Source: an uncultured Thiomicrospira sp.
Lineage (GTDB): Bacteria > Pseudomonadota > Gammaproteobacteria > CAKMZV01
Direction of reading: 5' to 3'
Assembly (NCBI GenBank): GCA_965195345.1
Contig: OZ239628.1
Location: 1,711,553-1,775,552, forward strand
Length of the DNA stretch: 64,000 bases
In this document: piece by piece, positions 45,801-47,220 of the stretch
How the letters are laid out: every line of letters starts with the position of its first letter
Numbering within the stretch: position 1 is the first letter of the stretch
Position numbers and translations under genes: made by a program
The notes under the pieces: generated by a model
Database searches by the model: none
Told to the model about the DNA's origin: nothing
Seen by the model: the letters and a program-made list of their open reading frames with translations, nothing else

Positions 45801-46469
45801 ATGAATGAAAAAAAACAATCTTTGTTAGGTGGTGGAGAAGAAGTGAGAGCAGTTTGTACTCCTGATTCAGGAGCTGCAGGAGCACATGTCACCATAACAA
45901 CGACGCCTGCATCTGAACCTTCAGGATTCCATGATCTAACCATTTTAGGCGGAGTTGTAATATCACTAGAAACTGGGTTGGCTGAAAAATTAGATACTGT
46001 AGAGGCTATGGAGGATGCAAACATTTATACTGCAGTTCTCCCTAATGATCTTGATGAAGGACACTACGACATTATCATAGATTTAACATCACACCTCCCA
46101 GGTAAAGAATCGACACGCTTTACGATTAAAGCCAATTATGAAGTTGAGGGGAATGAGCGAGGTAAAAATCCTGAAATAAGAACAATCACCCCATCAACAA
46201 TTTCGCAAGCTGAATTCAATACAAAATTATTCACTGTGCAGGGAAAGAATTTTGATCAGTTAAATGTTCAGCGCGGTGCTCAAATACTTACTGAAGCTGG
46301 AGCAACCAGATTAAGCGTAACGCCTCAAAGTGATACGAGATGCCTTATACGTACAATCAATCAAGCTGGCACTCCTCCTTCGGCAGGTGTTTGGGCAGTG
46401 TTCATGTTCAGCAAAAGTGGAATACGTATTTCATCAGCCTCTAGGATTAGAGTGACGGAAGAAGAGTAA
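45801..46469 (+). CDS. paralog 2 (222 aa)
   Basis: differs from paralog 3 by one residue (A/V). Confidence 0.85.
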   Translation: MNEKKQSLLGGGEEVRAVCTPDSGAAGAHVTITTTPASEPSGFHDLTILGGVVISLETGLAEKLDTVEAMEDANIYTAVLPNDLDEGHYDIIIDLTSHLPGKESTRFTIKANYEVEGNERGKNPEIRTITPSTISQAEFNTKLFTVQGKNFDQLNVQRGAQILTEAGATRLSVTPQSDTRCLIRTINQAGTPPSAGVWAVFMFSKSGIRISSASRIRVTEEE

Positions 46470-46510
46470 GCGCACCATACGAGTTCAATACAATCAATAC
46501 GGAGTAAACT

Positions 46511-47179
46511 ATGAATGAAAAAAAACAATCTTTGTTAGGTGGTGGAGAAGAAGTGAGAGCAGTTTGTACTCCTGATTCAGGAGCTGCAGGAGCACATGTC
46601 ACCATAACAACGACGCCTGCATCTGAACCTTCAGGATTCCATGATCTAACCATTTTAGGCGGAGTTGTAATATCACTAGAAACTGGGTTGGCTGAAAAAT
46701 TAGATACTGTAGAGGCTATGGAGGATGCAAACATTTATACTGCAGTTCTCCCTAATGATCTTGATGAAGGACACTACGACATTATCATAGATTTAACATC
46801 ACACCTCCCAGGTAAAGAATCGACACGCTTTACGATTAAAGCCAATTATGAAGTTGAGGGGAATGAGCGAGGTAAAAATCCTGAAATAAGAACAATCACC
46901 CCATCAACAATTTCGCAAGCTGAATTCAATACAAAATTATTCACTGTGCAGGGAAAGAATTTTGATCAGTTAAATGTTCAGCGCGGTGCTCAAATACTTA
47001 CTGAAGCTGGAGTAACCAGATTAAGCGTAACGCCTCAAAGTGATACGAGATGCCTTATCCGTACAATCAATCAAGCTGGCACTCCTCCTTCGGCAGGTGT
47101 TTGGGCAGTGTTCATGTTCAGCAAAAGTGGAATACGTATTTCATCAGCCTCTAGGATTAGAGTGACGGAAGAAGAATAA
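46511..47179 (+). CDS. paralog 3 (222 aa)
   Basis: near-identical to paralog 2. Confidence 0.85.
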   Translation: MNEKKQSLLGGGEEVRAVCTPDSGAAGAHVTITTTPASEPSGFHDLTILGGVVISLETGLAEKLDTVEAMEDANIYTAVLPNDLDEGHYDIIIDLTSHLPGKESTRFTIKANYEVEGNERGKNPEIRTITPSTISQAEFNTKLFTVQGKNFDQLNVQRGAQILTEAGVTRLSVTPQSDTRCLIRTINQAGTPPSAGVWAVFMFSKSGIRISSASRIRVTEEE

Positions 47180-47220
47180 GCGCACCATACGAGTTCAATA
47201 CAATCAATACGGAGTAAACC

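Follow-up and report, generated by a model that had tools for sequence, protein, structure and literature searches.

What has made two neighbouring genes in this bacterial genome almost identical, and what kind of genes are they? The window, i. e. the whole stretch of 64 kb that was analysed, contains a single long repeat family: A repeat search identified four copies of one gene (c1 to c4) that lie head-to-tail on the same strand, with start-to-start spacings of 976, 710, and 710 nt. The first-pass annotation of this DNA had described two 710-bp units as about 99% identical, with one amino acid change (A/V) between their products, and both statements hold. In a comparison at an offset of 710 nt, positions 45801-46510 and 46511-47220 differ at 4 of 710 bases, corresponding to 99.4% identity, and this similarity is far beyond chance. 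The first difference (46303 C / 47013 T) changes codon 168 from GCA to GTA and replaces Ala by Val in the product of c3. The other differences are either silent, as for 46349 A / 47059 C (Ile183) and 46466 G / 47176 A (Glu222), or they affect the spacer, as for 46510 T / 47220 C, the final spacer base at position -1 relative to the next ATG. Tandem Repeats Finder gave no report for the array, as the period of 710 nt is above the 500-nt maximum of this program.

The array and the gene that follows it are composed of these elements:

44638..44824, plus strand: upstream block of c1, about 190 nt, the probable promoter region; 79-85% identical to the block before c2 (repeat families D6 and D8, alignment A8)
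44825..45490, plus strand: c1, 221 aa, predicted double IPT/TIG protein, a mosaic copy (ORF list, alignment A1, mosaic test)
45491..45608, plus strand: downstream region of c1, homologous to the intergenic region between c4 and the large gene (repeat family D7, alignment A9)
45609..45800, plus strand: second copy of the upstream block, before c2 (repeat search, alignment A8)
45801..46469, plus strand: c2, 222 aa, Ala168
46470..46510, plus strand: c2-c3 spacer, 41 nt, chimeric (alignments A8 and A9)
46511..47179, plus strand: c3, 222 aa, Val168, three coding bases apart from c2
47180..47220, plus strand: c3-c4 spacer, 41 nt, identical to the c2-c3 spacer except for the last base
47221..47886, plus strand: c4, 221 aa, the most divergent copy, 69% amino acid identity to c2
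47961..51005, plus strand: large gene, 1014 aa, 74 nt after c4, without a known domain

All four small ORFs are intact, and each of them is preceded by a GGAG ribosome-binding site at a distance of 6 nt from the ATG. The protein identities are 77% for c1/c2 and 73% for c1/c4, as compared to the 69% given above for c2/c4, and one terminal codon is the only indel among the four copies. No terminator-like sites were detected on the plus strand between positions 44100 and 47960, and both promoter and terminator scans remained at background level. Based on the short distances between the genes (41, 41, and 74 nt), the lack of predicted plus strand terminators and the conserved linkage described below, c2, c3 and c4 are probably co-expressed with the large gene from a common transcript, and the small proteins may work together with the large one.

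A pair of this kind may owe its existence to the assembly: Variants from different strains could have been laid in tandem, or more than two near-identical units could have been collapsed to two. A repeat of 1.4 kb at 99.4% identity does exceed the length of short reads, and the nearest relatives of the genes all come from metagenome-assembled genomes (MAGs); the source of the window may be a MAG as well, and strain variants might then be mis-joined. However, the contig of 1.92 Mb suggests a long-read or finished assembly that would easily span 1.4 kb. Moreover, the differences between the two copies are substitutions in clean in-frame units with near-identical spacers, the window has no other repeat or anomaly, and the proteins encoded by c2 and c3 are both present in the public annotation, where they appear as separate entries of the protein collection (P0001 and P0004) on one contig of 1,920,693 bp. 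Contig size and the presence of four fixed differences are mild arguments against an artefact or a collapse, and we regard such an origin as highly improbable.

The borders of the similarity are informative for the event that generated the pair. The 5' edge of the identity is abrupt, with 14 of the 41 bases before position 45801 differing from the spacer before 46511. The tract of identity covers one full period, and beyond it the value drops to about 84%, which is the level observed for c3 and c4. The synonymous divergence (dS) is 0.006 for c2/c3 vs. 0.13-0.19 for the other pairs, which puts the age of the c2/c3 event at about one thirtieth of that of the others. If sister chromosomes were misaligned, one unequal crossing-over of a c2-like unit with c4 would add a gene-plus-spacer unit of 710 nt. 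The predicted product, a middle copy that is wholly c2-like and has the same spacer on both sides, matches the observed pattern. The exchange point would be located in the conserved region of the ribosome-binding site and the start codon, between -3 and about +31, where the first difference between c2 and c4 is found. At the bases near the start, c3 has the spacer-type A at -3 and the c2-type T at -1, and c4 has a C at -1. This pattern fits an exchange between -3 and -1; since a point mutation explains it equally well, the junction can only be assigned to the interval from -3 to about +31.

The same near-identity might have been produced by gene conversion. In this case, c2 and c3 would both be old, as diverged as c4, and one of them would recently have overwritten the whole of the other without any change in copy number. 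Full-length conversion and tandem duplication predict a nearly identical sequence outcome; recombination between copies is clearly present in the array, as judged from the mosaic structure of c1, and the dS values of the N-terminal half are uneven between the pairs (0.074 for c1/c4 vs. 0.244 for c1/c2), in agreement with conversion. What speaks for a duplication is the shape of the tract: It comprises exactly one period including the whole spacer and starts within 3 nt of the start codon, and for conversion such an agreement with the length of the unit would be a coincidence. All four differences are located in the last 208 nt of the unit, as would be expected if a conversion tract had covered the 5' part of about 500 nt latest, but their clustering is not significant (range test, P ~0.08) and was discarded as a signal. 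Taken together, we assign a probability of roughly 0.7 to a very recent tandem duplication as the cause of the near-identity of c2 and c3, and consider gene conversion to be unlikely. The initial proposal of either recent unequal crossing-over or homogenisation is thus narrowed down: The one-period tract, the c2/c3 dS and the mosaic nature of the older copies all support a very recent recombination within a tandem array, and of the two mechanisms the duplication is preferred. Regarded as a duplication, the c2/c3 event is a recent tandem event of an ordinary kind, and the youngest one in the array.

The chimeric spacers, a relic of the large gene's start after c1, and the mosaic c1 show that the array has expanded through no fewer than three nested tandem duplications, accompanied by recombination among its copies. 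The oldest step was a tandem duplication of 976 nt that extended from the upstream block through the gene and its downstream region into the start of the large gene. Two observations lead to this conclusion: the upstream block is repeated before c2, and remains of the large gene's 5' end are present after c1 at 45567-45600, with an ATG at 45567 (ATGGAAAAAGATTACCTAACTTGTAATCGC as compared to ATGAAAAAAGTTAGC...TAACTTGTCACCGC at 47961). The second step was a tandem duplication of 710 nt with the chimeric 41-nt spacer as its junction. In the c2-c3 spacer, the opening bases of the downstream region (GCGCACCA) are fused to the final ~30 nt of the upstream block (TACGAGTTCAA...CGGAGTAAACT). In the third step, the 710-nt unit would have been used again, giving rise to the c2/c3 pair.

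The recombination between the copies is best visible in c1. Its N-terminal domain is nearest to c4, and its C-terminal domain is nearest to c2/c3: To the left of nt ~360, 33 sites match c4 and 11 match c2, as opposed to 15 and 39 sites, respectively, to the right. The maximum chi-square value of 21.6 was reached in none of 2000 permutations, and the breakpoint near nt 357-364 falls on the linker that joins the two protein domains. This significant mosaic demonstrates that exchange between the copies does occur, and recombination has thus shuffled the N- and C-terminal domains.

Are the copies of any use to the cell? With dN/dS values close to 1 (0.7-1.2 for the whole gene, not significantly different from 1; 1.2-1.4 for the C-terminal domain, indistinguishable from neutrality with Fisher p values of 0.3-0.7), the paralogues might be regarded as decaying duplicates without a function, and the array as genomic junk at a duplication-prone site. 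However, the copies have accumulated 85-105 substitutions per pair and all ORFs are still open, whereas only 1-3% of simulations with random substitutions keep the frame open; this difference indicates that c1 to c4 are maintained by selection. Moreover, there are no indels apart from the one terminal codon, and the dN/dS of the N-terminal domain is 0.44-0.87, with the value of 0.44 for c1/c2 being significantly below 1 (p = 0.014), as expected for purifying selection. Finally, distant lineages keep two to six intact and strongly diverged copies beside the same large gene. A lack of function is thus very unlikely. The C-terminal domain evolves fast, by relaxed constraint or by diversifying selection, and the data fit both.

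According to structure prediction, the products of c1 to c4 are small (221-222 aa) leaderless proteins with two IPT/TIG immunoglobulin-like domains. An AlphaFold2 model calculated with distant homologues in the alignment has a mean pLDDT of 84.4 and consists of two beta-sandwich domains; the model based on the four paralogues alone was poor (pLDDT 47.6) and was set aside. The nearest structural neighbours of the predicted Ig-like beta-sandwich are IPT/TIG domains, and Foldseek searches of the PDB and of BFVD returned generic tandem-Ig matches only, with TM scores of about 0.3 (at most 0.34 for BFVD). When the family alignment A3 was compared by hhalign to a 185-aa TIG protein encoded at a metagenomic locus (L066, see below), a probability of 90% and an E value of 1.5e-6 were obtained over 173 columns. 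This 185-aa protein passes the Pfam threshold for TIG (32.8 bits vs. 20.9). For c1, c2 and c4, no Pfam family was found at E <= 0.1, the TIG model PF01833 included, and the distant homologues P0006, P0008 and P0010 gave only sub-threshold noise with Pfam TIG. IPT/TIG domains (Pfam PF01833) have an E-set Ig-like fold and are known as the IPT domains of plexin and Met, the TIG domains of EBF/COE, and from surface glycan-binding proteins of Bacteroides; in bacteria, they are mostly modules of large secreted or surface proteins. In contrast to such typical IPT/TIG proteins, the proteins of the window are free-standing, with a length of about 220 aa, they have neither a signal peptide nor a membrane anchor, and they lack a Pfam TIG match.

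The small proteins belong to a rare family, as a full HMMER scan of 1.84 billion representative proteins yielded only about eight full-length distant homologues (152-240 aa, 23-30% identity). A search of 5.8 billion protein clusters returned only the four proteins of this genome, and the use of the family alignment in the same search added the matches P0011, P0016, P0019 and P0020 only. A profile search of genome contigs with the alignment of the paralogues gave no match, NCBIfam did not provide any usable match, and a search of the literature for TIG domains in sponge symbionts revealed nothing relevant. The possibility of a phage or anti-phage defence gene was considered and rejected: PHROGs returned nothing, the PADLOC matches were noise (E 0.043), no relatives were found in viral contigs, and the matches in BFVD were the generic Ig-like ones mentioned above.

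The large protein of 1014 aa encoded downstream of c4 has no match in Pfam, NCBIfam, PHROGs, PADLOC or the PDB sequences. Its homologues from seven other loci are 28-48% identical in the C-terminal part of about 500 aa and 22-26% in the N-terminal half. In one of these loci (L067), a gene of 493 aa (12546-14027) is located between the small-gene array and the large gene, and its product is a paralogue of the N-terminal half of the large protein with about 34% identity. Due to the existence of this separate paralogue, the N-terminal half can be said to behave as an independent module. No relation between the C-terminal half and the small family was detected by hhalign. A relationship of the large protein to beta-pore-forming toxins was considered as well: With a profile of three sequences (A5), the PDB gave one weak match, 7y79_A "Toxin" (E 0.039, 16 bits), that was gone with the full-length profile of four sequences (A6). 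In scans of metagenomes for the large protein, profile A5 had no match and profile A7 found two loci.

The association of the two genes extends beyond this genome. Seven other loci combine members of the small family with an adjacent homologue of the large protein, and in an eighth (L068) the array is cut by the end of the contig. The arrangements are as follows:

L066, JGI contig with a cyanobacterial-type context: gene for the 185-aa TIG protein, followed by a large gene of 914 aa
L067, ENA metagenome contig: six tandem small genes (35-70% mutual identity), the paralogue of the N-terminal half, then the large gene
L068, ENA metagenome contig: two or more small genes, array truncated where the contig ends
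L069, Logan contig: a single small gene with a large gene of 981 aa
L072, NCBI CP123872.1, a 3.18-Mb genome: large gene of 1038 aa, then two small genes (47% identical)
L073, metagenome contig: large gene at the contig end, no small gene downstream
L074, JGI contig: large gene, then a small gene of 236 aa
L075/L076, ENA and Logan contigs: large gene of 970 aa and five small genes (26-36% identical), three of them in one orientation and two in the opposite one

The hosts of these cassettes are scattered among unrelated marine and symbiotic bacteria, as represented by the 1.92-Mb genome studied here, the cyanobacterial contig, the 3.18-Mb genome, and the metagenome contigs. Across these distant lineages, the number of small genes per cassette varies from one to six. 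Arrays with multiple small genes are thus a repeated feature of this pair of genes, which has not been described before. The differences in copy number among the cassettes are differences between species and not within a population. The array of the window is unusual only in its youth, with copies that are 69-99% identical. The gene order is variable as well: In the window, L066, L067 and L069, the small genes precede the large gene, whereas they follow it in L072, L074 and L075.

Two of these loci have additional features. In L075, a metagenome scaffold of 58 kb, the cassette is located beside genes for a resolvase and an rve-type transposase (3442-6521 and 11939-13204). These neighbours and the inversion of two of the five small genes hint at a mobile cassette in this locus. 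L066 harbors three extra genes (222, 114, and 460 aa; 8814-9827 and 12862-14244) without a Pfam domain that are absent from the other loci.

In the window, the array and the large gene interrupt, on the opposite strand, a cluster of genes for the metabolism of methylated amines and one-carbon units (35015-37429, 42027-43307, 43377-44186, 51353-52558, and 54187-55299). This cluster encodes a dimethylglycine dehydrogenase-like fusion of DAO and GCV_T domains, two more GcvT-like aminomethyltransferases, an MTHFR-like protein, and a creatinase/M24 peptidase. The GcvT-like protein encoded at 42027-43307 (minus strand) is 73-78% identical to proteins from MAGs of sponge-associated gammaproteobacteria (loci L001-L019), among them Ca. 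Persebacter sydneyensis, Ca. Zeuxoniibacter abyssi, and MAGs from sea caves. The neighbouring MTHFR-like gene is only about 27% identical in these MAGs, and no further neighbour is shared, which suggests a gene-specific transfer or strong conservation rather than close kinship. A scan of genome contigs with this gene identified 65 loci, none of which encodes the array or the large protein, and the synteny ends at the MTHFR-like gene. These genomes can thus not be regarded as sister genomes. An ORF of 280 aa without a Pfam family (41095-41937, minus strand) has homologues with 34-37% identity near the GcvT-like gene in four loci (L022-L025) that belong to MAGs of Trueperaceae, Porisulfidus and Oxydemutatoraceae. 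A search of the complete window (1-64000) with Rfam revealed no family at the gathering score, and no tRNA, rRNA or riboswitch was detectable.

Tandem arrays of paralogues that are subject to unequal crossing-over and gene conversion, i. e. to concerted evolution, are a general and well-known class. The copies c1 to c4 resemble such arrays in their head-to-tail orientation, the regular period, the chimeric junction spacers, the near-identical pair, and the older mosaic copy. They differ from the cassettes of antigenic or phase variation, since there are no truncated or promoterless silent copies: All four genes have their full length, and none of them lacks the ATG or the GGAG site. With a large protein, a variable number of small and fast-evolving genes and, in one locus, the vicinity of transposase and resolvase genes, the cassette also resembles polymorphic toxin/immunity arrays. 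However, no trafficking or toxin domain is recognisable in the large protein, and the organisation of this protein is the reverse of that of polymorphic toxins, with a conserved C-terminal and a variable N-terminal half. The gene order of the cassette is not fixed, in another difference from polymorphic toxin loci.

It is tempting to speculate that the four small genes and the large gene constitute a two-component cassette that has not been described before, in which a conserved large protein is combined with a lineage-specific repertoire of leaderless double-IPT/TIG proteins that duplicates rapidly, shuffles its domains and might act as a set of interchangeable binding or specificity subunits of a machine for host interaction or adhesion, or of a toxin-like machine. 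We put this forward tentatively, as a possibility that has the odds against it. The small proteins would then be the multi-copy, diversifying partner of the large protein, and a role in binding or specificity fits the Ig-like fold, the fast-evolving C-terminal domain, and the repeated independent amplification with recombination at the level of domains. If there is such a two-component system, the c2/c3 duplicate may represent the diversification of the repertoire caught in progress.

For any re-assembly or typing of this genome, a repeat of 1.4 kb at 99.4% identity has to be expected, and c2 and c3 should be treated as one gene family member in gene counts. While the duplication itself is ordinary, the uncharacterised family and its conserved partnership with the large protein are somewhat more interesting: In several lineages, the small gene has been amplified independently to two to six copies beside a conserved protein of about 1000 aa that lacks any recognisable domain. 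If the cassette is indeed a host-interaction or toxin-like system, the array would be a clear example of a variable component that diversifies by duplication and by recombination at the level of domains.
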